Assembly (NCBI RefSeq): GCF_000219725.1
Contig: NC_015732.1
Coordinates: 2,484,972-2,548,971 of the forward strand
DNA: 64,000 bases
Reading direction: 5' to 3'
Source of the DNA: Gracilinema caldarium DSM 7334
Lineage (GTDB): Bacteria; Spirochaetota; Spirochaetia; Treponematales; Breznakiellaceae
Below are positions 51,706 to 63,028 of the stretch, piece after piece; position 1 is the stretch's first letter, and every line of letters starts with the position of its first letter. The position numbers and the translations under genes are program-made. Below the pieces are notes generated by a model that saw only the letters and a program-made list of their open reading frames with translations, was not told the origin of the DNA and ran no database searches.

Positions 51706-52842
51706 CTACAAAGTAACCTTAGCGCCTACAAACCACTGGGACCAGGCAGTAAAGGGAATACCAAACCAGGTGGCCGATAGTGTATCCTGGGTCTTCATAA
51801 ACTCTGGAACTGTTCCGCCCTCTTCCAGTTGAACCAGGGTTTTAATACCTCCTGTCAGGTGAAGGGACCGGCTCAAAGGAAGTCCGAGGCTGAGACGGGC
51901 TGTGGGATAGGGTTTAATTAAGGAAATAAAAGCATCTTTATCACAATCTACTCCCGCCTGATACAGGGCTTCAATATCCTTCCCAAGGTGTTGCTCTGCG
52001 GACACATCAATATCAATATAGGGACCTCCCAGCCGTACCCTGGTACCGAGGCCTGCACTCACCATGAGGTTGTCATTTCGGACAAACCAGTCAGTCCGCG
52101 GAGCTCCTGCACCTAGTACCAAATAGATGAAGGGACTTCCGGCCTGCCAATAGGCAAAGGCCGTGTCCGTAGCGGGCATATATACAAAGCTCAGACTGTC
52201 CACTCCATTCCGGGATATATTGATGAGCCCGATCTGTAGGCCCCGTAACTCATCGGTGATATTCACGAGGCCAATCTGCATCCCATCCACCGATTCAGCC
52301 ACATTGAATACTTCCGCAATCTGTATACCCTTAACGGTTTTGGCAATATTAAAAACCCCTGCGGCCTGCACCGATCCCGTAACATCCTCTGCAATATTAA
52401 ACACCCCTGCCAGCTGAGCTCCCCGAACGGGACCGCCGGCTATATTAAACACCCCGGCCCCTTGAAAACCAAAACCCTGGTTATAGATATTAAAAACCCC
52501 AGCCCCGGCAAAGCCATAGGAGGCTTCGAAGGTTGCTCCAATTAAAGCAAAGGAAGCAGAGGTGCGATAATACCCAAAAGGACTAGATACCCCTGGCGCA
52601 AACGAAAGCAGTACCGGTGTATAGGGAACTTCAGAGTCTTCGTAAGATTCTGTAGCTTCCCTTACCTGAGACGGAAACTCCGCATCTGCTCTGTTTGTAT
52701 CCCGTTCCCTGTTCAGTTTTTCCTGGTATTGCTCCCGAGCTTTCTGCAGAACAGTCTCATCATCTTCCTGGGCAGCCAGGGGACCAGCAAAAAACGAAAA
52801 ACCCATTAGTAATGCGACGAGTGAACCAACAATACGTTTCAT
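51706..52842 (-). CDS. secreted/outer-membrane repeat protein with ~6 tandem GAGVFNIA-type 11-12 residue repeats
   Basis: Signal peptide MKRIVGSLVALLMGFSFFAGPLAAQ with a GGAGAGGAG RBS. Repeats AGVFNIYNQGF, GAGVFNIAGGP, LAGVFNIAEDV, AAGVFNIAKTV, IAEVFNVAESV, IGLVNITDEL and IGLINISRNG. Confidence 0.55.
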   Translation of the reverse strand: MKRIVGSLVALLMGFSFFAGPLAAQEDDETVLQKAREQYQEKLNRERDTNRADAEFPSQVREATESYEDSEVPYTPVLLSFAPGVSSPFGYYRTSASFALIGATFEASYGFAGAGVFNIYNQGFGFQGAGVFNIAGGPVRGAQLAGVFNIAEDVTGSVQAAGVFNIAKTVKGIQIAEVFNVAESVDGMQIGLVNITDELRGLQIGLINISRNGVDSLSFVYMPATDTAFAYWQAGSPFIYLVLGAGAPRTDWFVRNDNLMVSAGLGTRVRLGGPYIDIDVSAEQHLGKDIEALYQAGVDCDKDAFISLIKPYPTARLSLGLPLSRSLHLTGGIKTLVQLEEGGTVPEFMKTQDTLSATWFGIPFTAWSQWFVGAKVTL

Positions 52843-53039
52843 TTCGCTCTCCTCTCCATTCGATGAACCAACACAAGAGTCCGATCCATCAATTAAAAAT
52901 TGAGGGATTAAAAATCCATCCCCCGATGTCTCCATAAGAGCACATCGGTTATATATATAGCACGAAACAACTAACATTTCAGATGAATATGTCAAAATCT
53001 AAAAATCCCAACTTATTTTTTAAGCGACTGGTTAACTAT

Positions 53040-53581
53040 TGATGATATATTTACAGCTGCTTTGCCTTATCGATTAATAAACAACCGCATTAACCTGGAC
53101 TTTATACCCCAATTTCGCTATTTTAAAATTGCAGAGAATGAGTTCAGCACAAAGGAACTCCTTTCCTTAAAGAACCTGATTGGGGCATTGTTTTTAGTTG
53201 AAACTTCAGTCCCCAACGGAACTCGAAGGGATATTTAAACAGCTGAGGGCTTTGCTTGAGCAGGAACAGCCGGAGGTGTATCGGGCATTTCTTTCCTGGC
53301 TGTATAATTTTTTCTCAAAATCCGTACCTGATTGGGTGAGAGAGCCGTTAGATCCGAAGGAGGCACCGACCATGCTAGCCACAAACCTGAAGAAATGGGA
53401 ACAGGAACTTATCCAACAGGGTATATTCAAAGGTAAACAAGAAGGTTTGCAAGAAGGGCTACAACAGGGTATAGTAAGAGGCAAACTGGAAACGGCTCGA
53501 AAACTGAAACAAAAAGGTTTAAGTGTACAGGAAATTGCTGAGGTTACGGGACTCAGCTTTGAGGACATAGAACAACTTTAG
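53040..53581 (+). pseudogene. 3' remnant of an Rpn/YhgA-like PD-(D/E)XK nuclease (putative transposase) gene, frameshifted and lacking the nuclease domain
   Basis: The C-terminal region KGKQEGLQEGLQQGIVRGKLETARKLKQKGLSVQEIAEVTGLSFEDIEQL is the characteristic Rpn-family tail. Upstream homology continues in another frame, and there is no N-terminal domain. Confidence 0.55.
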
Positions 53582-53588
53582 AAGACTT

Positions 53589-53617
53589 TTAGAAATATCA
53601 TATTTTAAAAGTATAAT
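53589..53617 (+). promoter_or_regulatory. sigma70-like promoter TTAGAA-17-TATAAT upstream of the acetyltransferase gene
   Basis: Near-consensus -35 and -10 hexamers with a 17-bp spacer, 37 nt upstream of the GTG start. Confidence 0.4.
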
Positions 53618-53653
53618 ATTGTTGATGTGCAAATCCCGTAACAGGGGGCCCCG

Positions 53654-54469
53654 GTGGGTGAACAAGAAACGATAGAGAATCGTAAAAACGGTCCTAATAC
53701 GGTGATAAGCCTCGCAGAGGAACTTTTGTCTGCAGGACTCCGTCCCGGGATGACCATCCTCCTGCATTCTTCCCTCAGTGCTCTTGGCTGGGTTTGCGGC
53801 GGTGCACCGGCGGTCATCATGGCGTTCCAACAGGTTTTAACCGAAGAAGGAACCCTCGTCATGCCAACCCATTCGGGGGATTTATCAGACCCGGCCCAGT
53901 GGGAACATCCGCCGGTTCCCCGTGAGTGGTGGGAAACCATACGGAGTACCATGCCTGCTTATCGAAAAGATCGAACCCCCACACGAGGCATGGGCATCAT
54001 TCCGGAAACCTTCCGAAAAATGGATGGTGTACTGCGGTCCAGTCACCCCCAGATGTCCTTTGCTGCCTGGGGAAAACACAAAGCATACATTTTGCAGGAC
54101 GAACACTACGATTTTGGCATGAATGACCAGAGCCCCCTGGGCCGCCTTTACGAACTGGACGGACAGGTCTTTCTGCTTGGCGTAGGCCATGACAGGAACA
54201 CTTCGATACACCTGGCTGAATACCGAGCCGAGTGGCCTTCCAAATTGATGATTAAAAACGGCATGCCCATAGAAGAAGGGGGCATAACCTCCTGGCGCGA
54301 GTTTGATGACATCGCCTATGGGGGCGAAGACTTCGAAGCCCTCGGCAAGGCCTTTGAGGAGCAGCATCACATAAAACCATTCAAGGTTGGCAATGCAAGC
54401 TGCCGCATGTTTTCCCAGCGGGCCCTGGTGGACTTTGCAGTCCATTGGATCTCTACTCACCGGACCTAA
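53654..54469 (+). CDS. aminoglycoside N(3)-acetyltransferase family protein (AAC(3)/Antibiotic_NAT fold)
   Basis: The 271-aa product is collinear with AAC(3) enzymes (MTILLHSSLSALGWVCGG, LVMPTHSGDLSDP, RGMGIIPETFRKMDGVLRSSHPQMSFAAWG, FLLGVGHDRNTSIHLAEYRA). GTG start with an AGGGGG RBS. Confidence 0.8.
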   Translation: MGEQETIENRKNGPNTVISLAEELLSAGLRPGMTILLHSSLSALGWVCGGAPAVIMAFQQVLTEEGTLVMPTHSGDLSDPAQWEHPPVPREWWETIRSTMPAYRKDRTPTRGMGIIPETFRKMDGVLRSSHPQMSFAAWGKHKAYILQDEHYDFGMNDQSPLGRLYELDGQVFLLGVGHDRNTSIHLAEYRAEWPSKLMIKNGMPIEEGGITSWREFDDIAYGGEDFEALGKAFEEQHHIKPFKVGNASCRMFSQRALVDFAVHWISTHRT

Positions 54470-54475
54470 GGCCCT

Positions 54476-56437
54476 TTACTTTAGAGCCCGCAGTGCATTC
54501 AGCACCGCCAGGAGGGCAACCCCCACATCGGCAAGGACCCCCATCCACATGGTTGCCAGCCCCAGGGCACCAAGCACCATGACAGCAATCTTCACCAGCA
54601 GGGCAAAGAGTATGTTCTGCCAGACGATGCGGCGGGTTTTCCGCGCCCGGTCGATGGCTTCGGGTATCCGGGACAGGTCATCGGTCATAAGGACCATATC
54701 CGCCTGTTCTATAGCCAGGTCCGACCCGGCCCTGCCCATGGCGATTCCCACATCGGAGCGGGCCAGCACCGGCCCATCGTTAATGCCATCGCCTACAAAG
54801 GCCGTAGTCCCCCCAGAGCTTTGCTGTAACAGCGATTCGAACCGCTCCAGCTTATCCTCAGGGAGCAGGCTGTGGTGTACTTCAGTGACCCCGGTTTGCC
54901 GGCCAACAGCATGGGCAGGGCCGGGGCCGTCACCGGTAAAGAGGGCGACCTGCTCGACCCCGCGATCCCGCAGTTCCCGGATGACCCGGGGAGCATCGGC
55001 CTTTATCTGGTCTTCCAGGTGTACCGTTCCGACAATGGAGCCATCGTATGCAACATGAATAACCGTTGCGTCGGCGGAGCTGCATTCATGGGGAATAGAT
55101 TTAAGATGGAGGAGCCGATCATTCCCGGCAAGAATTTCCGTTCCCTCCTGGGTCACCAGACTGCCATGACCGGGAATTTCGTAGTAGGAGCCCTCATCAT
55201 AGACAGGGTTGGTATCCGATTGGGTTTTCCAATGGCGCTGCACTGCCTGGGCCAAAGGATGATTGGATTGGGCAGTAGCGGCCGCTGCATAGGCCAGAAC
55301 CTGTGCTTCCGAATGGTTAGGGTGGACATCAATTTTTGACACCTGGAATTTTCCCGTGGTCAGGGTGCCGGTTTTATCAAAGACGATACGTTGGACATGA
55401 ACCAGCCGGTCAAGGACTGCAGCTCCCTTGAGTAAAATGCCCCGTTTTGCCGCTCCCCCAAGACCGGCAAAATAGGTAAGAGGCACACTTAAGACAAAGG
55501 CACAGGGACAAGAAATGACTAGCATGATGAGGGCTCGGTACAGCCAATCATAGAACCGTGCTCCTGGAAGCAGAAGAGGCGGCACAACTGCTATAATGAG
55601 GGCTATTCCCACAACAACAGGGGTATAGAAGCGGGCAAAGCGGGTAACGAATAATTCAACCGGGGCTTTCCGCTGTTGGGCTGATTCTATCAGATGTAAA
55701 ACCCGGTTTAAGGTCGAATGTTCATACTTTTCAGTTACCTGTACCGTAAGGGTGCCTTCTGTAAGTACATAACCGCCTAGCAATACCTGCCCCGGTTCAG
55801 CGGGCCGGGGTACGGACTCACCGGTTACTGCAGAAGTATCCACCGTACCGGTACCCTCTGCCACAAGACCATCCAGGGCAAGCCGCTCCCCTGCCCGCAA
55901 CAGCAGGAGCTCTCCCGGTTCAACCTGTTCCGGAGGAGATGCTATCCAGGTGCCGTTTCGTTTAACCCGCACCTGGTCGGGGCGCAGATTCAGGAGAGCC
56001 TCGATGGATCGGCGGCTGCGGTGTACTGCATAGTCCTGGAAGAATTCTCCAATCCGGTAAAACACCATAACACCCACCGCTTCTTCCCAGGCTCCGAGGG
56101 CAATAGCTCCAAGAGATGCAATGCTCATGAGGAAGAGTTCATCAAATACAAATCCCCTTCGCAGGTTCTGCCAGGCTCCCCTGAAAACGGGCCATGCGGC
56201 AGCCCCGTAGGTGACCATCAACATAATAAGACCCATTGTTGTCCCATAGGGGATACTGAGTAGATTTTCAGACAGTAGAATGCCAAAGATAGTCCCCAGA
56301 AACGCGAGGGCTAATGTCCGGGCTTCGGCAATCTGGGTCTCGGTAAGATGACCCACAGGAAGGCTCTTTTCAGCGGAACTTGAATCTTGTATGTCAAAGG
56401 CGGCACCACAACCGCAACTACTGCAGGAATCATTCAT
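54476..56437 (-). CDS. heavy-metal translocating P1B-type ATPase (Cd/Zn/Pb type, CadA/ZntA-like)
   Basis: N-terminal Cys-rich metal-binding segment (CSSCGCG), TM6 SCPCAFVLSVP, phosphorylation motif FDKTGTLT and GDGINDGP hinge. Confidence 0.88.
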   Translation of the reverse strand: MNDSCSSCGCGAAFDIQDSSSAEKSLPVGHLTETQIAEARTLALAFLGTIFGILLSENLLSIPYGTTMGLIMLMVTYGAAAWPVFRGAWQNLRRGFVFDELFLMSIASLGAIALGAWEEAVGVMVFYRIGEFFQDYAVHRSRRSIEALLNLRPDQVRVKRNGTWIASPPEQVEPGELLLLRAGERLALDGLVAEGTGTVDTSAVTGESVPRPAEPGQVLLGGYVLTEGTLTVQVTEKYEHSTLNRVLHLIESAQQRKAPVELFVTRFARFYTPVVVGIALIIAVVPPLLLPGARFYDWLYRALIMLVISCPCAFVLSVPLTYFAGLGGAAKRGILLKGAAVLDRLVHVQRIVFDKTGTLTTGKFQVSKIDVHPNHSEAQVLAYAAAATAQSNHPLAQAVQRHWKTQSDTNPVYDEGSYYEIPGHGSLVTQEGTEILAGNDRLLHLKSIPHECSSADATVIHVAYDGSIVGTVHLEDQIKADAPRVIRELRDRGVEQVALFTGDGPGPAHAVGRQTGVTEVHHSLLPEDKLERFESLLQQSSGGTTAFVGDGINDGPVLARSDVGIAMGRAGSDLAIEQADMVLMTDDLSRIPEAIDRARKTRRIVWQNILFALLVKIAVMVLGALGLATMWMGVLADVGVALLAVLNALRALK

Positions 56438-56475
56438 AGGTTCATATACTCCTCTTGATACTATGCAGGCCGCTT

Positions 56476-56495
56476 CTCAAAACTGCAGTTTTGAG
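56476..56495. promoter_or_regulatory. 20-bp perfect palindrome CTCAAAACTGCAGTTTTGAG between the ArsR-family gene and the P-type ATPase gene
   Basis: Exact self-complementarity. It sits in the 65-nt intergenic gap of a two-gene operon, with an adjacent direct repeat AGAGGCCCT x2. Confidence 0.4.
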
Positions 56496-56502
56496 AGGCC
56501 CT

Positions 56503-56874
56503 TTAAGAGAGGCCCTGCTCGGACACATGTTCCATGGCCAGGGCAATCAGGGCATCCACATGGTGATCATCGAGCTGGTAGTAAACAATTTTTCCAATTT
56601 TCACTGGCCGGACGAGCCGGGCACGGCGAAGTATTGCAAGCTGATGACTTAAGGCAGACTGACTCATATCAAGCAGTGCTGCGAGGTCACAGACACAGCG
56701 GTTTTCCGGACTTTGCAGGGCATGGAGAATCCGCAATCGACTGGGATCCGCAAGAATTTTAAACAACTCCGATAAGGCTAAAAGCCGTGGAACAGGCCAT
56801 TCCAGCTTCCGGTCTTCTTCCGAAATCGTTTCGTCCCTGTCGGTACAGGTACAATGATAAGTTTGTTGGTCCAT
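56503..56874 (-). CDS. ArsR/SmtB family metalloregulator (CadC-like)
   Basis: HTH LADPSRLRILHAL ... VCDLAALLDMSQSALSHQLAILRRARLV and N-terminal Cys pair (HCTCTD) typical of CadC-type sensors. Confidence 0.85.
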   Translation of the reverse strand: MDQQTYHCTCTDRDETISEEDRKLEWPVPRLLALSELFKILADPSRLRILHALQSPENRCVCDLAALLDMSQSALSHQLAILRRARLVRPVKIGKIVYYQLDDHHVDALIALAMEHVSEQGLS

Positions 56875-56885
56875 ACTCGATGACA

Positions 56886-56901
56886 GCTCCCATACATGAA
56901 T
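56886..56901. promoter_or_regulatory. imperfect 16-bp inverted repeat ATGAATATATGTTCAT just upstream of the ArsR-family gene; candidate metalloregulator operator
   Basis: 14 of 16 positions palindromic, flanked by ATACAT direct repeats, 12 nt upstream of the start codon. Confidence 0.45.
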
Positions 56902-57112
56902 ATATGTTCATACATAATAAATGTCAAGGGATGCATTAAACAAATACAAGCAACACCCGAGCAGTTTGTCGGACTTGTCTGAATAATCAGATAAAAATCG
57001 CAGACATTAGCGATTTTTTACCTTGCAAACAGCCAAAGCAGCCAGGTTAATCGAGATTTTAATGGCTAAGGGTAATCCTTAGCCATTAAAAATCTACAAG
57101 TCCGACAGGCTC

Positions 57113-57463
57113 TTAAGTACGGAGAATTTTCTCCATTGGCTTTCCTTTTGCCAGTTCATCAACCAACTTATCAAGACAGCGGACAATACGTACAATTTCA
57201 TCTTGAATATCCTCGATACGTATACCACAGATAAGTCCTGTAATAAGGCTAGCCTTGGGATTGATGCACGGGGCCTCTTTTACAAAGGTTTCCAGATTAA
57301 TCTCTAAATCCGATTGCCGTTGTAGCTCTTCACTCGTATACCCCGTAAGCCAGGAAATGACCCGATCCACTTCTTCTTTTGTCCTGCCTTTTCGGACAGC
57401 TTTTTGGATATAGAGCGGGTATACTGTTGAAAAGCGCATTTTATATATTTTTTGTTGATCCAT
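57113..57463 (-). CDS. DUF2200-like small conserved protein
   Basis: About 116 aa. Start chosen at MDQQK with an AGGAGAG RBS. The sequence pattern (FSTVYPLYIQKAVRKGRTKEEVDRVISWLTGY) matches the DUF2200 family from memory. Confidence 0.45.
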   Translation of the reverse strand: MDQQKIYKMRFSTVYPLYIQKAVRKGRTKEEVDRVISWLTGYTSEELQRQSDLEINLETFVKEAPCINPKASLITGLICGIRIEDIQDEIVRIVRCLDKLVDELAKGKPMEKILRT

Positions 57464-57555
57464 GGGGAACTCTCCTGATAATTTGACAGGATTCAAAGTG
57501 CCTCAAAAAAATCGGTAAGATTTTTGAAAGCGCTTAATCAAATCTTTACAAAATC

Positions 57556-59451
57556 TCATTTTCCGTTACCCGCAAGCCTTTCCATCTCCTGTCGGGTCCG
57601 TTCCATCAGATCCGTTGTGGATTCCCGCTGTAAAAGATGGGGGTCGGGATATTGGGGATTCCCGATACGCACATAAATGGTCTGGCCAAAGAGGAACCGC
57701 AGTAGGCCCCAGGACCGTTTCTTAAAACTGATCCTGATCGGTACCACGGGCACCGAGGCTTCGACTGCAAGCTGAAAAGCCCCCCGCTTAAAGGGCCGCA
57801 GCTGTTCATCAAACTTAACCAGTTCTCCCTCAGGGAATACATGGATAAAGCGCCTGTGCCGCAAGAGACGGGAGAGTTCGTAAAAAAAGATACGGCCTTC
57901 GGTCAGCGTCTCTGGAATCGGCACACTGCCGAGGGCATTTACCAGAAAACCTGCAACCGGAAGCTTAAAATTGCTGGGCAGGGACGTAAAGACCGGTTTT
58001 TTCGGAAACGCTGCAAGGCCAACCATGGCTGAATCCAGGGTATGTACATGGTTGGCAACCAGGACTGCCCCGCTTTTCCGGCGTACCTTACGGAGGACCT
58101 TACGATTTTTAATTCGCACCCGCAGCACAAAGGTACAATAGAGCCACAGGAGAGGGATAGCGACAATATAATAGAAAACAATTGAAAAAAGCCTTGTGGG
58201 GATGCCCTTGTTTATCCGCCGTTTATACTCCCGTCCCGGGTTTTGCTTTTCCAGACGCCGGGTCTGTTCATCCTGCCGGGCCGCATCGAACATCTGCTCG
58301 GCCTTGCGTATTGAATAGTCCAGACGATACACCTTCGCCCGCTCGGTATAGGCCGGCCCCATCCTATACCGTTCTTCCGGATGTTCTATCCAGTACTCAA
58401 TTTTATGAGCCAGGTCCCGGCTGGAACCGGCTTTAAAGAGACTGCGTTCATCCAGGGCAAACTGGCCGGTGGCGCTTTTTTTACTGTTCGAAATCACCGG
58501 AACCTTACCGCAAGCGATTGCTTCGAGACAGGCTATGGCTTCAATTTCCACATCTGCCGCATGCACATAGAGATCGCAGGAATGAATCAGATTAATGAGT
58601 TCCTCCTGCTGGTAAAATCCGAAGGTTACCGGATTCGTGAGAGATTTCGCAAGCCACCGTAGATAGCCCTCTCGGGGGCCAGCACCGGCGAGATGTAGTT
58701 GAATACGATCTTCATATTTGGATAATTTTATGGCTTTAATGAGCACATCCTGCCGTTTTTCCGGAGCAAAGCGACCCACCATGAGAATATGAAACAACCG
58801 GTTTCCTCCGGAATCTGTTGATGGGTGGACCTCAGGTCCCTGAAAATTGGGAGCCGGGTATATAGCTCCCGGGAGATCTAAGCTCTGGGACACAGGACTG
58901 AAAGCGTAGCTGACTCCATTCGAAATTACATGGAGACGCCCCGTATAATGATGTTTAACCAGTTCCCGGGCAATAAAGGGAGAAGGACAGTGGATATGTT
59001 CAACCCTTCGGTAAAAGCTGAAACGAAACCAGAAGTAGATAAAAAATGCTATCGGTGCGCCCCAGGGACCTAGCCCGGCCCCATAGGTGATGTTTTCCGG
59101 CTGAACATGAAAAGCGGCCGTAGCGGGGATTCCCATTTTTTTTGCAAGCCCCAAACCCTTTCGTGCTACCTGCCAGGGCATGAAAAAATGAACCACATCA
59201 GCTCCGGTCAAGGCTTCCTGCATAACTTTTTTATCATATTTTGCAAATATCATGGACTGTTTTCGGGCTACCGGTGTTACGATGGGGATATAGCGCTCTG
59301 GAACCGAATACATGTCGGGGCCATGGACTCCCACACTTACCACCCGGACCTGGTGGCCCCGCATATTAAGGGCTTCGACAAAACGGAAGGCAGTCATGGT
59401 AGTTCCATTGGTCAGGATGCCGTAATTGTCGATCACAAAGACGATGACCAT
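57556..59451 (-). CDS. fusion protein: N-terminal GT4-type glycosyltransferase and C-terminal lysophospholipid acyltransferase (PlsC/LPLAT) domain
   Basis: The N-terminal ~390 aa have a GT-B fold with the E-x7-E region (HAADVEIEAIACLEAIACGKVPV). A TM segment is followed by acyltransferase motifs NHVHTLD, FPEGE and PVVPIRI. Confidence 0.7.
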   Translation of the reverse strand: MVIVFVIDNYGILTNGTTMTAFRFVEALNMRGHQVRVVSVGVHGPDMYSVPERYIPIVTPVARKQSMIFAKYDKKVMQEALTGADVVHFFMPWQVARKGLGLAKKMGIPATAAFHVQPENITYGAGLGPWGAPIAFFIYFWFRFSFYRRVEHIHCPSPFIARELVKHHYTGRLHVISNGVSYAFSPVSQSLDLPGAIYPAPNFQGPEVHPSTDSGGNRLFHILMVGRFAPEKRQDVLIKAIKLSKYEDRIQLHLAGAGPREGYLRWLAKSLTNPVTFGFYQQEELINLIHSCDLYVHAADVEIEAIACLEAIACGKVPVISNSKKSATGQFALDERSLFKAGSSRDLAHKIEYWIEHPEERYRMGPAYTERAKVYRLDYSIRKAEQMFDAARQDEQTRRLEKQNPGREYKRRINKGIPTRLFSIVFYYIVAIPLLWLYCTFVLRVRIKNRKVLRKVRRKSGAVLVANHVHTLDSAMVGLAAFPKKPVFTSLPSNFKLPVAGFLVNALGSVPIPETLTEGRIFFYELSRLLRHRRFIHVFPEGELVKFDEQLRPFKRGAFQLAVEASVPVVPIRISFKKRSWGLLRFLFGQTIYVRIGNPQYPDPHLLQRESTTDLMERTRQEMERLAGNGK

Positions 59452-59511: not shown

Positions 59512-60120
59512 GTGAGAGATAGAACAAATCTAAAGAACATACAAGAGGCGTTTCAAAAACCTTTACCCGGCAGGGAAGCACATCTCAAAATGGCACCTCC
59601 CTGGCGAAGGGATGCCCTGCAGCCCGAACAGCATTACCGGCCTTCGGCGGTTCTGCTATTGCTGTATCAGGCGGGGGATGCACTGTATTTTCCTCTTATT
59701 CTTCGAAGCAGTCAGTTGAACCACCATGCGAGCCAGATTGGGCTTCCCGGAGGCGCTCTGGAACCGGGAGAAAGTGCAGAACAGGCAGCCCTGCGGGAAA
59801 CGGAGGAGGAACTGGGGATTTCTACCGCAAAGATTCAAATCCTGGGCTCATTAAGTCCCCTGGGTCTTGCCGTCAGCGGCTACACGATTTACCCTGTTGT
59901 CGGATACCATGAGGGGCCTCTTAACGTTCGGCCAAACCCAGCTGAGGTAGCCCGTTGTATTATGGTTTCTCTTGATGAACTACTCCATGATAAAACAATC
60001 ATCACCCATACGTTGGAAGACGGCCGGAATGTCCCGGCGTATCGCCTTGCAGGAGCAACAGTCTGGGGTGCTACTGCCATGATTCTGGCGGAATTGACCG
60101 AAATTTTGATGCAGGAATAA
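59512..60120 (+). CDS. NUDIX hydrolase (CoA pyrophosphatase NudL-like)
   Basis: Nudix box GLPGGALEPGESAEQAALRETEEELGI and upstream UPF0035-like SAVLLLL motif. Confidence 0.8.
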   Translation: MRDRTNLKNIQEAFQKPLPGREAHLKMAPPWRRDALQPEQHYRPSAVLLLLYQAGDALYFPLILRSSQLNHHASQIGLPGGALEPGESAEQAALRETEEELGISTAKIQILGSLSPLGLAVSGYTIYPVVGYHEGPLNVRPNPAEVARCIMVSLDELLHDKTIITHTLEDGRNVPAYRLAGATVWGATAMILAELTEILMQE

Positions 60121-60646
60121 AGATATACAGTATTGTTTCCATATTATCAACCACAATTCTGCCATCTATTTGCTTTAAAAGTAGCTGAAATAATTCCATA
60201 TTAAGTTCAAAATGAGGATACTCATTGTTTAAAACAGGAAATGAAATCTTATTTTTAGTACTATACAGTTTTATAGTAATTTTAATCTCATCATTTTGAA
60301 TATTCTCAATAGATAATGATATTTTTTGCGGCTTATGCATTTCCATTACAAGATATAATTGAACAAAAAGCTCATGTATAAAAAGGGTAAGATGTTGAGA
60401 GTTTTGTATAGATACCGGTATAGGCTCAGCATGTTCGATTGTAATAATAGAGCGTTTTGTCTGAAAGTGAGTATTCTCTTCAAAATAAGACTGAAACCAT
60501 TGTAATAAATCGATGAGATTTACCATCTCGACATACTGATCCATTTTATGAATATCATAAACGCTTATTAATGAGCGTATTTCAGAAATTAACATGTCAA
60601 ATTGTTGAGCTGAATTATTACCAAGTTCAAACATCTGGTTATATAG
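60071..60646 (-). pseudogene. 3' part of an AT-rich gene split by an IS insertion (weak GHKL/histidine-kinase-like ATPase resemblance)
   Basis: The reading frame continues through the target duplication into 62294..62435 on the far side of the IS. The reconstructed pre-insertion ORF is ~237 aa with an AAAAGG RBS and ATG at 62435. GC is far below the neighbouring genes. Confidence 0.6.
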
Positions 60647-62293
60647 GGCTTCCTGAAAAACAAACAACTCTTTACAAAAGAAGCAAATACAGAGATAATC
60701 TCAATAAGAAGTGCACGGAAGAAAGGGGTAAGGCCTTAAAAAGCGTGCACTTTACTATGGGGTAACGATGTATAAGGAAAAGGAACAGGTACCTGAGTTT
60801 GAAGACTTTTATGTACCCTTCGGAGGACATTTACGAGAAGATAATCGATGGGTACGATTAGCCGCAATTATTCCATGGGAAGAGATAGAAGCTGAATATA
60901 AAAAATGTTTTTCAAAACGAATTGGAAGAACAGCCAAGACCGTACGGCTCGCCTTGGGATCATTATTGATAAAAGAGAAATTACAATTAACAGATGAAGA
61001 AACGGTAGAAACAATACGAGAGAACCATTACCTGCAATATTTTTTAGGATATGAATCTTACAAAGATGAAAAACCCTTTGATCCAAGCATGATGGTTCAT
61101 TTTCGAAAACGGCTTGGACCTGATGCAATAGCAAAGATAAATGAGTTGATAGCGAAACGGTATCAAGAACAGGTAGAAGCAGAATCTGAAAAAAAACAGA
61201 ACAAAAAAACCAAAAGGATGACCATGATCATGGAAATCGAGGGCAACTCATTATAGATGCCACGTGCGTCCCCCAGGATATCCGGCATCCCCATGATGTC
61301 ACTTTATTGGATGAAGCGCGAAGGAAAACAGAAAAGATAATTGATACGTTATATGAAGCGAGTGAGCTCACCATAAAACCACGAACCTATAGAAAACAGG
61401 CCCGTATCAAATATCTCAATTTTATACGAGGGCGACGAAGAACAAAAAAAGAAATACGCAGAGCGATTCGGACCCAACTCCAATACATACGACGTAATTT
61501 ACGGACTATCAATGAATTACAAAACAAGGTTCCCAGTACAACGTTGAGTGCAAAACAGCGACGTGATCTTATCGTGATACATGAGGTTTACCGGCAACAG
61601 GTACAGATGTATAAGGGAAAGACCCATTCGATATCGGGAAAAATCGTCAGTATCAGTCAACCCCATGTACGACCAATAGCCCGAGGTAAAGCAAAAGCGG
61701 CCTTTGAATTCGGAGCAAAACTATCAGCATCGATGACCGAACACGGGATGATTTTTATAGATCGATTACAATGGGAACCCTATAACGAACAAGAAGATTT
61801 GCCAACACAAATAGAAAAATATAAGAGGCGATGTGGTCGATATCCGGAATCGGTGCATGCCGATAAAATATATCGGACACGAGCAAACCGAGCCTATTGT
61901 GAAGCTCGAGGAATACGATTGTCTGGACCACCCTTAGGCAGACCGATTAAAGAAACATTAGAGAATAAAAAGATAGTACGACAGCTACGAAAGATTCAAA
62001 GACTTGACGAAGCCATTCGACAAGCGATTGAAGGTGGCTTTGGATATATGAAACGAAAGTTTGGTCTTGGTACAATCTATGAAAAATTACGCGAAACTAG
62101 TGAAACAGCAATCATGGTATGTGTATTGCTGACCAACTGTGAAAAGATCCTGAGGGATCTTTTTATGCGCTTTTTATTTTTACTTGGTTTTAAACCTCAT
62201 AAATCATATTTGAAAGTTTTAGTATACTAAATTAAACCCATTTTAACGTAAAAAAGTTTTGAAATATCATTTTTAGACATTTTCAGTAGGCCC
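60647..62293 (+). mobile_element. second copy of the 1.65-kb IS (1647 bp), 7-bp target duplication TATATAG
   Basis: Near-identical to 22180..23827, with the same terminal inverted repeats. TATATAG appears at 60640-60646 and 62294-62300. Confidence 0.8.
60768..62230 (+). pseudogene. transposase gene with a -1 frameshift in a poly-A tract (A7 versus A8 in the intact copy)
   Basis: The ORF breaks at 61256 after KKQNKKTKRMTMIMEIEGNSL and resumes as the 307-aa ORF 61307..62230, which is identical to the C-terminal part of the intact copy. The only visible difference is one A fewer at ~61203-61209. Confidence 0.75.
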
Positions 62294-62435
62294 TATATAG
62301 ATTTAACAAACTAAGAATTACCTGAATATTATTTCGAACATAATGATTTACTTTTTTCTCAAACGATTCTGTCAGTTGGCTTAGAGAATATTCAGAGAGA
62401 GGGTTGTTATTGGAATTTATTTTTTTAGATTTCAT
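62294..62435 (-). pseudogene. 5' part of the IS-disrupted AT-rich gene
   Basis: ATG at 62435 with an AAAAGG RBS, in frame with 60071..60646 through one copy of the target duplication. Confidence 0.55.
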
Positions 62436-62692
62436 TCGTAATACCTTTTCAGAATCGATAGCATATCGCTATTAGCGATATAAAAACATAGTATTAGCTC
62501 ATTGTTTTAATGTCAAGAAAAACAGACAATTATTAAAGACTATTTTTTTATACAATTGTCATGCAATTTGCTATGCGGTTTGTTAAGTTACAGAAAATTG
62601 CACTTAAAATCAAAAGATGGAAGGCAAGGTTTTCTAAATATTTCTCTATTTTGAAAACCAATTAATAAGGCATTGATTAGTGGTACACAATT

Positions 62693-63028
62693 ATGATGGA
62701 AAATGAATTACTAAATTTACTCGGTCATAACATTCGACAGACCCGTATCGAAAAAGGCCTTTCACAGTATGGTTTAGCATTAAAAACAGGAATGGCAGCC
62801 AATTCTATTAATGATATAGAGAATGGAAAACGTTGGGTTTCAGCAAAATCATTATCTAGAATAGCAAATGCCTTAGAAGTTGAGCCTTATATTTTCCTCC
62901 TTCCAAAATCATTTCGAATTAATGATGGAATTACTAGTATTAAATTATATGATGACGAAATGATTAAAGCTATCCAATCAGCTATAAAAGAAGTCAGAAA
63001 ACGTTATAATATCGATTCCGATTCTTGA
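62693..63028 (+). CDS. XRE family (Cro/C1-type HTH) transcriptional regulator
   Basis: HTH_XRE signature LLGHNIRQTRIEKGLSQYGLALKTGMAANSINDIENGKRWVSAKSLSRIANAL. AT-rich context. Confidence 0.8.
   Translation: MMENELLNLLGHNIRQTRIEKGLSQYGLALKTGMAANSINDIENGKRWVSAKSLSRIANALEVEPYIFLLPKSFRINDGITSIKLYDDEMIKAIQSAIKEVRKRYNIDSDS

Follow-up and report, generated by a model that had tools for sequence, protein, structure and literature searches.

P-type ATPases of the P1B-2 (Zn/Cd/Pb) type carry, in the Arguello classification, the transmembrane metal-site signature CPC(x4)[ST]xP, N(x7)K and DxG(x7)N, and repressors of the SmtB/CadC type have metal sites made up of the alpha3N cysteines and/or of DxHx10Hx2E in alpha5. 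Acetyltransferases of the Antibiotic_NAT family share the catalytic motif TxPhiHPhiAE as defined in PMC8956665, and three of them, YokD from B. subtilis, BA2930 from B. anthracis and FrbF from S. rubellomurinus, were reported to "possess no activity against AGs", i.e. aminoglycosides (PMC8956665). Rpn genes spread through horizontal gene transfer and are enriched near variable loci (PMC10400941). From inside rpn a small antitoxin, RpnS, is translated, the hallmarks of which are repeats 8–20 residues past the methionine and a repeat number that varies among strains (Zhong et al. 2023, PMC10400941), and stand-alone rpnSs genes are known in E. coli (PMC10400941). Homologues of all these proteins lie next to one another at positions 53040–56901 (3.9 kb) of a 64,000-nt piece of the Gracilinema caldarium chromosome, which is hereafter called the window. 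The first-pass annotation of this segment had described a co-selected antibiotic and metal resistance module beside mobility debris. Here we argue that the 3.9-kb stretch consists instead, with a probability of roughly 75%, of three units that differ in history and are neighbours only by chance at a single variable chromosomal spot: an acetyltransferase gene, the remnant of an inserted rpn gene and a metal-efflux cassette. Gene identities, motifs, synteny, presence or absence in relatives and selection signatures were all analyzed directly.

Gracilinema caldarium proteins at NCBI, on a contig of 3.24 Mb, match both the acetyltransferase and the ATPase with 100% identity; the gene families are all known, and the proteins checked carry annotation in the public genome already. 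Profile searches and motifs bore out the first family-level calls (a truncated Rpn, an AAC(3)-fold gene, an ArsR-family regulator and a P1B ATPase with SCPCA) as well as the convergent layout of the acetyltransferase gene and the arsR-ATPase pair, whose stop codons are separated by 6 nt. The features were found at or near the positions first given, except that the right boundary, 56901, cuts the arsR promoter. The locus was compared with its closest relative, a single lineage represented by L004/L005, L006 and L007 (nucleotide identity ~82% to the window), with L002 (which shares a contig with L013), L003, L012 and L015 (~74–77%), and with L014 as a more distant outgroup. A backbone in the order MatE, PfkB, beta-carbonic anhydrase, surface repeat protein, acetyltransferase, variable slot, GT4/acyltransferase fusion (GT) and NUDIX is common to L002/L013, L003, L015 and L004–L007, as far as each contig reaches; L014 differs, and L012 shares the GT side, its contig stopping short of the acetyltransferase slot. 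Only the Rpn insertion and a DUF2200-arsR-cadA cassette vary among these relatives, one on each side of the acetyltransferase gene.

These parts are not inherited together. Orthologues of the acetyltransferase gene occupy the same syntenic slot in L002/L013, L003 and L015, which are all three of the other lineages with that part of the locus recovered, and L002, L003 and L015 carry the gene without the Rpn fragment and without the metal operon. In L004–L007, on the other hand, the acetyltransferase gene has a 561-bp internal deletion (window 53693–54253 is gone) and the adjoining metal operon is intact, so that cadA stands beside a deleted acetyltransferase gene; the gene is dispensable in this sister lineage. 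Against the orthologues in L002, L003 and L015, the pairwise ratio of non-synonymous to synonymous divergence (dN/dS) of the acetyltransferase was 0.08–0.12 and the synonymous divergence (dS) 1.4–1.9. Both values are shared by the GT and PfkB genes that flank it, indicating vertical descent under purifying selection, and we judge the acetyltransferase gene to be ancestral at the locus and vertically inherited. Comparison among relatives divides the segment: its acetyltransferase gene is syntenic in L002, L003 and L015, and its Rpn and cadA parts are clade-specific.

The acetyltransferase gene (53654–54469, + strand, GTG start) encodes 271 residues with the Antibiotic_NAT fold. The protein matched Pfam PF02522 (317 bits, cut-off 25), with residues 36–266 covering profile positions 1–231 of 232 and therefore its full length, and the catalytic TxPhiHPhiAE motif with its His/Glu dyad is intact (TSIHLAE, T183–E189), because of which the protein is probably an active acetyl-CoA-dependent N-acetyltransferase. 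When it was checked against the NCBIfam models behind NCBI's resistance annotation, it fell under both the family and the subtype cut-offs (AAC_3 equivalog model NF033082: 173.9 bits, cut-off 270; AAC(3) subtype models: 132.6/560 for -VIII, 118.6/420 for -IV, 100.7/480 for -II and 57.6/675 for -VIa). In sequence searches of the PDB it matched YokD (2NYG), BA2930 (3IJW) and FrbF (3SMA) at 271–276 bits, the best resistance AAC(3) (7LAP) at 122 bits and AAC(3)-III, -IV and -VI at 63–97 bits, i.e. it is about 150 bits nearer to the YokD/BA2930/FrbF clade than to any resistance enzyme. Since the protein belongs to this non-resistance branch, an aminoglycoside is most likely not its substrate; for the acetyltransferase, this placement is the outcome that the first-pass annotation had itself named as speaking against its interpretation.

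A different view of the same gene would be that it encodes a genuine intrinsic aminoglycoside 3-N-acetyltransferase, a form of environmental proto-resistance independent of the metal operon. The habitat of Gracilinema caldarium, which we take to be a microbial mat, makes antibiotic producers plausible there, the Antibiotic_NAT domain is full-length with its motif intact, and NCBI names the protein aminoglycoside N(3)-acetyltransferase. Many environmental enzymes of this family do confer resistance (PMC8956665). We nevertheless consider this view unlikely, because the score lies well below the AAC_3 cut-off and far under that of every subtype model, the nearest proteins by some 150 bits are reported to lack aminoglycoside activity (PMC8956665), and the sister lineage has lost the gene through a deletion.

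The same comparisons bear on the idea of a horizontally acquired islet, in which an aminoglycoside enzyme and a metal pump were co-selected and the Rpn fragment is the scar of the mobility event. Its attraction is that the Rpn insertion and the cadA cassette bracket the acetyltransferase gene and have the same phyletic distribution (both in the window and L004–L007, both missing in L002 and L003, the cassette also in L012 and L015), that Rpn genes are mobile and enriched near variable loci (PMC10400941), and that the GC content at third codon positions (GC3) of the acetyltransferase gene and cadA exceeds the window mean (z ~1.2–1.4). However, an acetyltransferase gene that is orthologous and syntenic where both other parts are missing, and as diverged as its flanks, did not arrive with them, its product falls in the non-resistance branch, and deletion of this gene with retention of cadA in the sister lineage is the opposite of co-selection. 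Hallmarks of mobility were likewise not found among plasmid matches, tRNAs, integrases and flanking repeats. The segment 53040–57500 was carried by none of 72,556 plasmids in a distant blastn search, in which the matches were ~300 bp long with 66–70% identity to the ATPase core, plus one to DUF2200; there was no tRNA in 44–64 kb, no integrase or tRNA at the segment borders, and among direct or inverted repeats that might delimit it only short matches at chance level. GC3 was 0.585 for the acetyltransferase gene and 0.558 for cadA, and the backbone neighbours have 0.52–0.55. Taken together, we regard an acquired co-selected islet as highly improbable, and the first interpretation of the segment as such a module is not upheld.

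Two related candidates were rejected separately. A plasmid origin was ruled out by the plasmid matches being only short (~300 bp, 66–70% identity), and a compositional island was dismissed because GC3, high for the window, is similar in the conserved flanks and hence uninformative. The nearest mobile element is an insertion sequence (IS)-like pair of DUF772 and DDE_Tnp_1_2 ORFs (open reading frames) at 60768–62230, possibly frameshifted, in a low-GC stretch (60000–63000, GC 0.28–0.40). The alignment to L004 ends at 60645, and the element appears specific to the window lineage; the conserved GT and NUDIX genes separate it from the cadA cassette.

The second unit is the metal operon, which is of the standard type with an SmtB/CadC-like regulator plus a P1B-2 efflux pump, as judged from its motifs. 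The ATPase (54476–56437, − strand, 653 aa) was assigned to the P1B-2 (Zn/Cd/Pb) type by TIGR01512, by its motifs and by its PDB match. It scored 494.7 bits with TIGR01512 (Cd family; cut-off 313.5) and 343 with the copper model TIGR01511, which is under the cut-off of that model (397), and both PF00122 and PF00702 matched. The core motifs DKTGT (354–358), TGE (205–207) and GDGxND (GDGIND, 549–554) are present, and the metal-site signature is complete, with CPCx4SxP at 310–319 (SCPCA; CPC at 310–312), Nx7K at 608–616 and DxGx7N at 637–647. In the alignment to ZntA (4UMV), the best PDB match (361 bits), these residues pair with its CPC, Lys and Asp. An N-terminal HMA domain, typical of CadA/ZntA and not strictly defining for P1B-2, was not detected in the ATPase by Pfam (PF00403), and its closest homologues likewise lack one; its N-terminus, MNDSCSSCGCG, carries CSSCGC. 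The nearest cadA homologue is that of L004 (85% identical), followed by those in metagenome-assembled genomes of Termitinemataceae, Treponemataceae and Spirochaetaceae (62–64%), in which a LacI-family gene and a GH88 gene flank the arsR-cadA pair. Since the nearest homologues are all spirochaetal, we take the cassette to be of spirochaete origin.

The regulator gene (56503–56874, − strand, 123 aa) was assigned to the ArsR/SmtB family by NF033788 (94.8 bits, cut-off 55), by PF01022 (64, cut-off 22; winged-helix HTH_5 core) and by PDB matches, of which SmtB was the best (76.9 bits), followed by Listeria Lmo1102, CzrA and CadC. It carries two ligand sets, the alpha3N-type C8, C10, C60 and C62 (CadC-like) and the alpha5-type DxHx10Hx2E at 103–119 (SmtB-like), and the CVC and DHH...H..E columns are visible when it is aligned to SmtB and Lmo1102. 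The arsR-cadA promoter, TTGACA-17-TATATT, lies at 56927–56899 (− strand; -35 TTGACA at 56927–56922, -10 TATATT at 56904–56899), and the operator-like inverted repeat ATGAACATATATTCAT, which the first-pass annotation had pointed out correctly, covers this -10 at 56896–56911. Both its TGAA-N6-TTCA core and the promoter recur nearly unchanged in L004 and L007, and a homologous operon with 63% identity (L008 and L011) has a longer perfect palindrome, TGAACATATGAA-N6-TTCATATGTTCA, upstream. Conservation of this core across three diverged loci supports ATGAACATATATTCAT as a putative operator of arsR-cadA. A further palindrome, GCTTCTCAAAACTGCAGTTTTGAGAGGC (core CTCAAAACTGCAGTTTTGAG; 56472–56499, 28 nt, 94% complementary), lies 3' of arsR and 5' of cadA, in spacer sequence that is extra to the window lineage, the spacers of L004 and L008 being much shorter and without it; as an intercistronic hairpin it may affect cadA expression or mRNA stability. 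The metal specificity is inferred, as are the biochemical activities of all proteins, promoter use and RpnS function. In the metal-free state, the SmtB/CadC-type repressor would occupy, as a dimer, the TGAA-N6-TTCA palindrome over its own -10; Zn, Cd or Pb, once bound to the cysteine (alpha3N) sites, the His/Asp/Glu (alpha5) sites or both, would free it from the DNA, arsR and the P1B-2 pump would then be transcribed, and the pump would expel the metal using ATP. As a role in an organism of hot-spring mats, zinc homeostasis is no less likely than pollution resistance.

The operon belongs to a clade-specific cassette of cadA, arsR and DUF2200, which extends from the acetyltransferase stop to the GT4/acyltransferase stop (54470–57555). 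By blastn, window positions 54451–57567 are unmatched in L002 and L003 while both flanks align, and tblastn showed that the slot in L002/L013, L003, L012 and L015 holds a pair of genes for proteins of 336 and 110 aa instead (L002 9264–10634, L003 4000–5365, L015 12076–13436, L012 11992–13339), with a UDP-glucose dehydrogenase gene as well in L002/L013 and L012. Neither the 336-aa nor the 110-aa protein has a Pfam or NCBIfam family; the latter gave a faint CutA-like match only (E = 0.0065). L004–L007 have DUF2200-arsR-cadA at junctions identical to those of the window. In a neighbour-joining tree built from the GT protein, with L014 as the root, the window groups with L004/L007 and the two clades with the 336+110 pair lie outside, so that a single replacement in the window/L004 ancestor is the simplest account; it is probable that the metal cassette and DUF2200 replaced the two-gene cassette in this common ancestor.

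The DUF2200 gene (57113–57463, − strand, 116 aa from the ATG; PF09966, 164 bits) adjoins arsR-cadA only in the window and L004–L007, not in L002, L003, L012 or L015, and is not found in the more distant arsR-cadA loci either (L008–L011). It evolves much faster than its neighbours, with 77% amino acid identity and dS of ~3.2 versus ~0.7. Directly 3' of its stop and before the arsR promoter lies a hairpin with a perfect 15-bp stem (57057–57091, TTTTAATGGCTAAGG-N5-CCTTAGCCATTAAAA), which is probably a terminator or insulator between the DUF2200 and arsR units.

The third unit is the rpn pseudogene upstream of the acetyltransferase gene. With the intact 299-aa Rpn of L013 (2181–3080) as the tblastn query, an upstream piece was found at 53074–53208 (+ strand, frame 1; Rpn residues 136–180 of 299, 80% identity over 45 aa) and a downstream piece in frame 2, the latter being a truncated Rpn ORF of 127 aa at 53198–53581 (+ strand; Rpn residues ~178–299). 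This ORF matches the C-terminal end of TIGR01784 (positions 208–273 of 273) with 50.5 bits, just under the cut-off of 52.1. A frameshift lies near 53205, and the window retains only Rpn residues 136–299 of 299; residues 1–135, comprising the PD-(D/E)XK nuclease core, are missing, and Pfam gave no match to the nuclease domain PF04754 (Transposase_31) in the Rpn ORFs. No other rpn copy was detected by tblastn within the 64-kb window. L002 and L003 have an empty site here, with 114 bp between the surface-protein and acetyltransferase genes in L002, and the insertion is present at that site in the window and L004–L007. The L004 remnant keeps Rpn residues 1–24, 72–172 and 220–299, with ~295 bp of N-terminal sequence at the junction; because its internal deletions differ from those of the window, the nuclease half was destroyed independently in both lineages. 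The Rpn insertion and the metal cassette are read as two separate events. Rpn is multi-copy in the clade, with the gene in L013 and another at L018. The L018 gene (2270–3210, GCA_030154545.1) is the second rpn copy of the L004 genome; it is split, with residues 1–159 and 199–299 in different frames, it keeps a 69-aa RpnS-type ORF intact, and the same structure is seen in four independent assemblies. The contig type of L018 is that of L017, L019 and L020.

Within the remnant, an RpnS-like ORF of 69 aa (MLATNLKKWEQEL..., with 4-aa repeats and a helix-turn-helix (HTH)-like tail) starts from an ATG at 53372 and ends at 53581 (+ strand); in the NCBI annotation it is a hypothetical protein (P0248). 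Its pattern of change is unlike that of debris. A Shine-Dalgarno sequence, AAGGAGG (53357–53363), lies 8 nt before the ATG, and both this sequence and the start codon are identical in L004. Compared with L004, dN/dS was 0.07 at a dS of 0.98, which is equal to or above the background, the codon changes comprised 19 synonymous and 10 conservative non-synonymous ones, and changes were concentrated at third positions (23/65 versus 10/130 at positions 1 and 2, Fisher p = 3e-6). The ORF is 69 aa long in the window, 65 aa in L004 and 61 aa in L007, in steps of one 4-aa repeat; the 69-aa form has six repeats, which start 14 residues past the methionine within the long first helix. Both the place of the repeats and their changing number agree with the published description of RpnS (PMC10400941). 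In an alignment of 24 relatives (A1), the MLAT start is nearly invariant, the repeat tract variable and the HTH-like tail conserved, and 7 of the 24 are gene calls that start at the MLAT methionine. The AlphaFold model has a mean pLDDT of 80 with helices at 2–47, 52–59 and 63–68. Foldseek placed E. coli RpnA-S (7TH0) at rank 7 among generic HTH matches (TMt 0.75, root-mean-square deviation 0.8 A over 37 columns, non-significant E = 1.8), and a PDB sequence search with the 69-aa ORF found only designed helical repeat proteins and not RpnA-S.

Whether this ORF is a functional orphan RpnS has to be weighed against its being, like the rest of the Rpn remnant, neutral debris that looks conserved because of recent loss or gene conversion. 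Debris would fit the inactivating deletions, which are independent in both lineages so that the ancestor was possibly intact for most of the divergence time, the multiple Rpn copies in the clade (L013, L018), the TIGR01784 score just under the cut-off and the fact that variation by repeat units of 12 nt necessarily keeps the frame and so does not alone prove maintenance of an ORF. It is harder to reconcile with a dN/dS of 0.07 at a dS of ~1.0, with a start codon and Shine-Dalgarno sequence that are intact and identical in both lineages, with a second rpn of the L004 genome that is likewise split with its 69-aa ORF intact, with the 7 gene calls from the MLAT methionine, or with the existence of stand-alone rpnS genes in E. 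coli (PMC10400941). We give neutral debris, like a functional orphan RpnS, somewhat less than an even chance. Equally tentatively, rpn genes in this spirochaete clade may repeatedly lose the RpnL half and keep a selected stand-alone RpnS, here and at L018, with the block 53075–53184 as its promoter/leader. If true, an orphan antitoxin would have outlasted its toxin, perhaps as a neutralizer of Rpn nucleases, resident or incoming, whose repeat number matches its own.

That block is 96% identical to L004 and holds a promoter-like TTTATA-17-TAAAAT (53101–53129) upstream of the RpnS-like ORF. Identity to L004 is 88–96% (dS 0.14–0.27) for the blocks 53075–53184, 52820–53077 and 54254–54469, the background dS against L004 being 0.67–0.80 and true intergenic DNA unalignable. 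The block 53075–53184 could be an internal rpnS promoter/leader or a trace of later recombination between the lineages. The RpnS-like ORF and this conserved upstream block are the only points of the locus that might repay follow-up.

Another promoter-like sequence, TTAGAA-17-TATAAT (53589–53617, + strand), lies 37 nt 5' of the acetyltransferase GTG start. It had been called a near-consensus sigma70 promoter; the elements are present and the -10 is perfect, but the description is generous, as the -35 agrees with TTGACA at only 3/6 positions. In a scan, 12 promoter-like sites were found in 4.8 kb versus 4.8 +/- 2.3 in shuffles. The sequence sits in DNA that is missing from L002 and L003, and L004 has tctatc where the window has TATAAT, showing that the -10 is not conserved. 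The DNA that holds the promoter-like sequence either came in with the rpn insertion or is younger than it. On the far side of the remnant, the predicted surface protein (51706–52995, − strand, 429 aa) has LA_2272/VC2662-type repeats (AGVFNI...) and no Pfam family. In the L004 lineage its gene has a 670-bp internal deletion (window 52151–52819 is gone), a second sign of a deletion-prone neighbourhood.

The history of the upstream side may then be put as follows. An rpn gene would have inserted upstream of the acetyltransferase gene in the window/L004 ancestor, its nuclease (toxin) part would later have been destroyed by lineage-specific deletions that spared the short C-terminal ORF, and this retained ORF would most likely still yield a small protein of the RpnS type; the promoter-like sequence before the acetyltransferase gene would now be provided by the insertion's 3' flank. 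Several points weigh against parts of the reading as a chance neighbourhood. The lack of aminoglycoside activity is extrapolated from three relatives, ~50% identical as estimated by eye from the YokD alignment, and a protein of the YokD branch may acetylate aminoglycosides weakly or in an unusual way. Judged from its sequence, the pump may be specific for Zn just as for Cd or Pb. The selection signal of the 69-aa ORF could predate the rpn loss or stem from gene conversion by intact paralogues, and the Foldseek match to RpnA-S is statistically non-significant. For the cassette replacement, the polarity hangs on one internal branch, a short one, in a neighbour-joining tree of a single gene.

The main value of the chance-neighbourhood reading is that of a correction, since an "AAC(3)" beside a metal pump and a transposase-like fragment mimics a co-selection module, and resistome surveys of environmental spirochaetes should leave the acetyltransferase out of their resistance-gene counts. 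In addition, the locus offers a clean natural case of gene-cassette replacement at a fixed chromosomal slot. The apparently asymmetric decay of rpn, in which the nuclease is lost and the antitoxin-like tail kept, bears on the evolution of intragenic toxin-antitoxin pairs.

Set beside the described systems, the 69-aa ORF resembles RpnS/RpnSs (7TH0) in being a C-terminal piece of Rpn with its own methionine and Shine-Dalgarno sequence, variable 4-aa repeats and an HTH-like tail, and differs from them in that the RpnL nuclease part is destroyed and there is no cognate toxin in cis. The acetyltransferase aligns over its full length with YokD, BA2930 and FrbF, is of similar length, has the same TxPhiHPhiAE motif and is encoded by a chromosomal gene unlinked to mobile elements; FrbF, however, serves phosphonate biosynthesis, whereas no such cluster surrounds the window gene, whose host is a spirochaete. 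With the resistance enzymes AAC(3)-II, -III, -IV, -VI and -VIII it has the PF02522 family and the catalytic dyad in common, but it scores under the family cut-off, and its gene is syntenic, vertically inherited by the evidence of its relatives and off mobile elements. The pump has CPC(x4)SxP, N(x7)K, DxG(x7)N, DKTGT, TGE and GDGxND as in ZntA (Shigella/E. coli, 4UMV), CadA (pI258) and ZiaA; in contrast to these it has the short CSSCGC in place of a ferredoxin-like HMA domain and measures 653 versus ~730 aa, and it stays far under the cut-off of the ZntA orthologue model (432 versus 1240). Finally, the repressor shares with SmtB, ZiaR, CadC and CzrA, which use operators of the 12-2-12 type, the winged helix, a palindrome over the -10 and a gene upstream of the pump, and is predicted to be autoregulated; it unites the CadC-like CxC...CVC and the SmtB-like DxHx10Hx2E in one protein, and the operon of the window differs from those systems by the extra hairpin between arsR and cadA.

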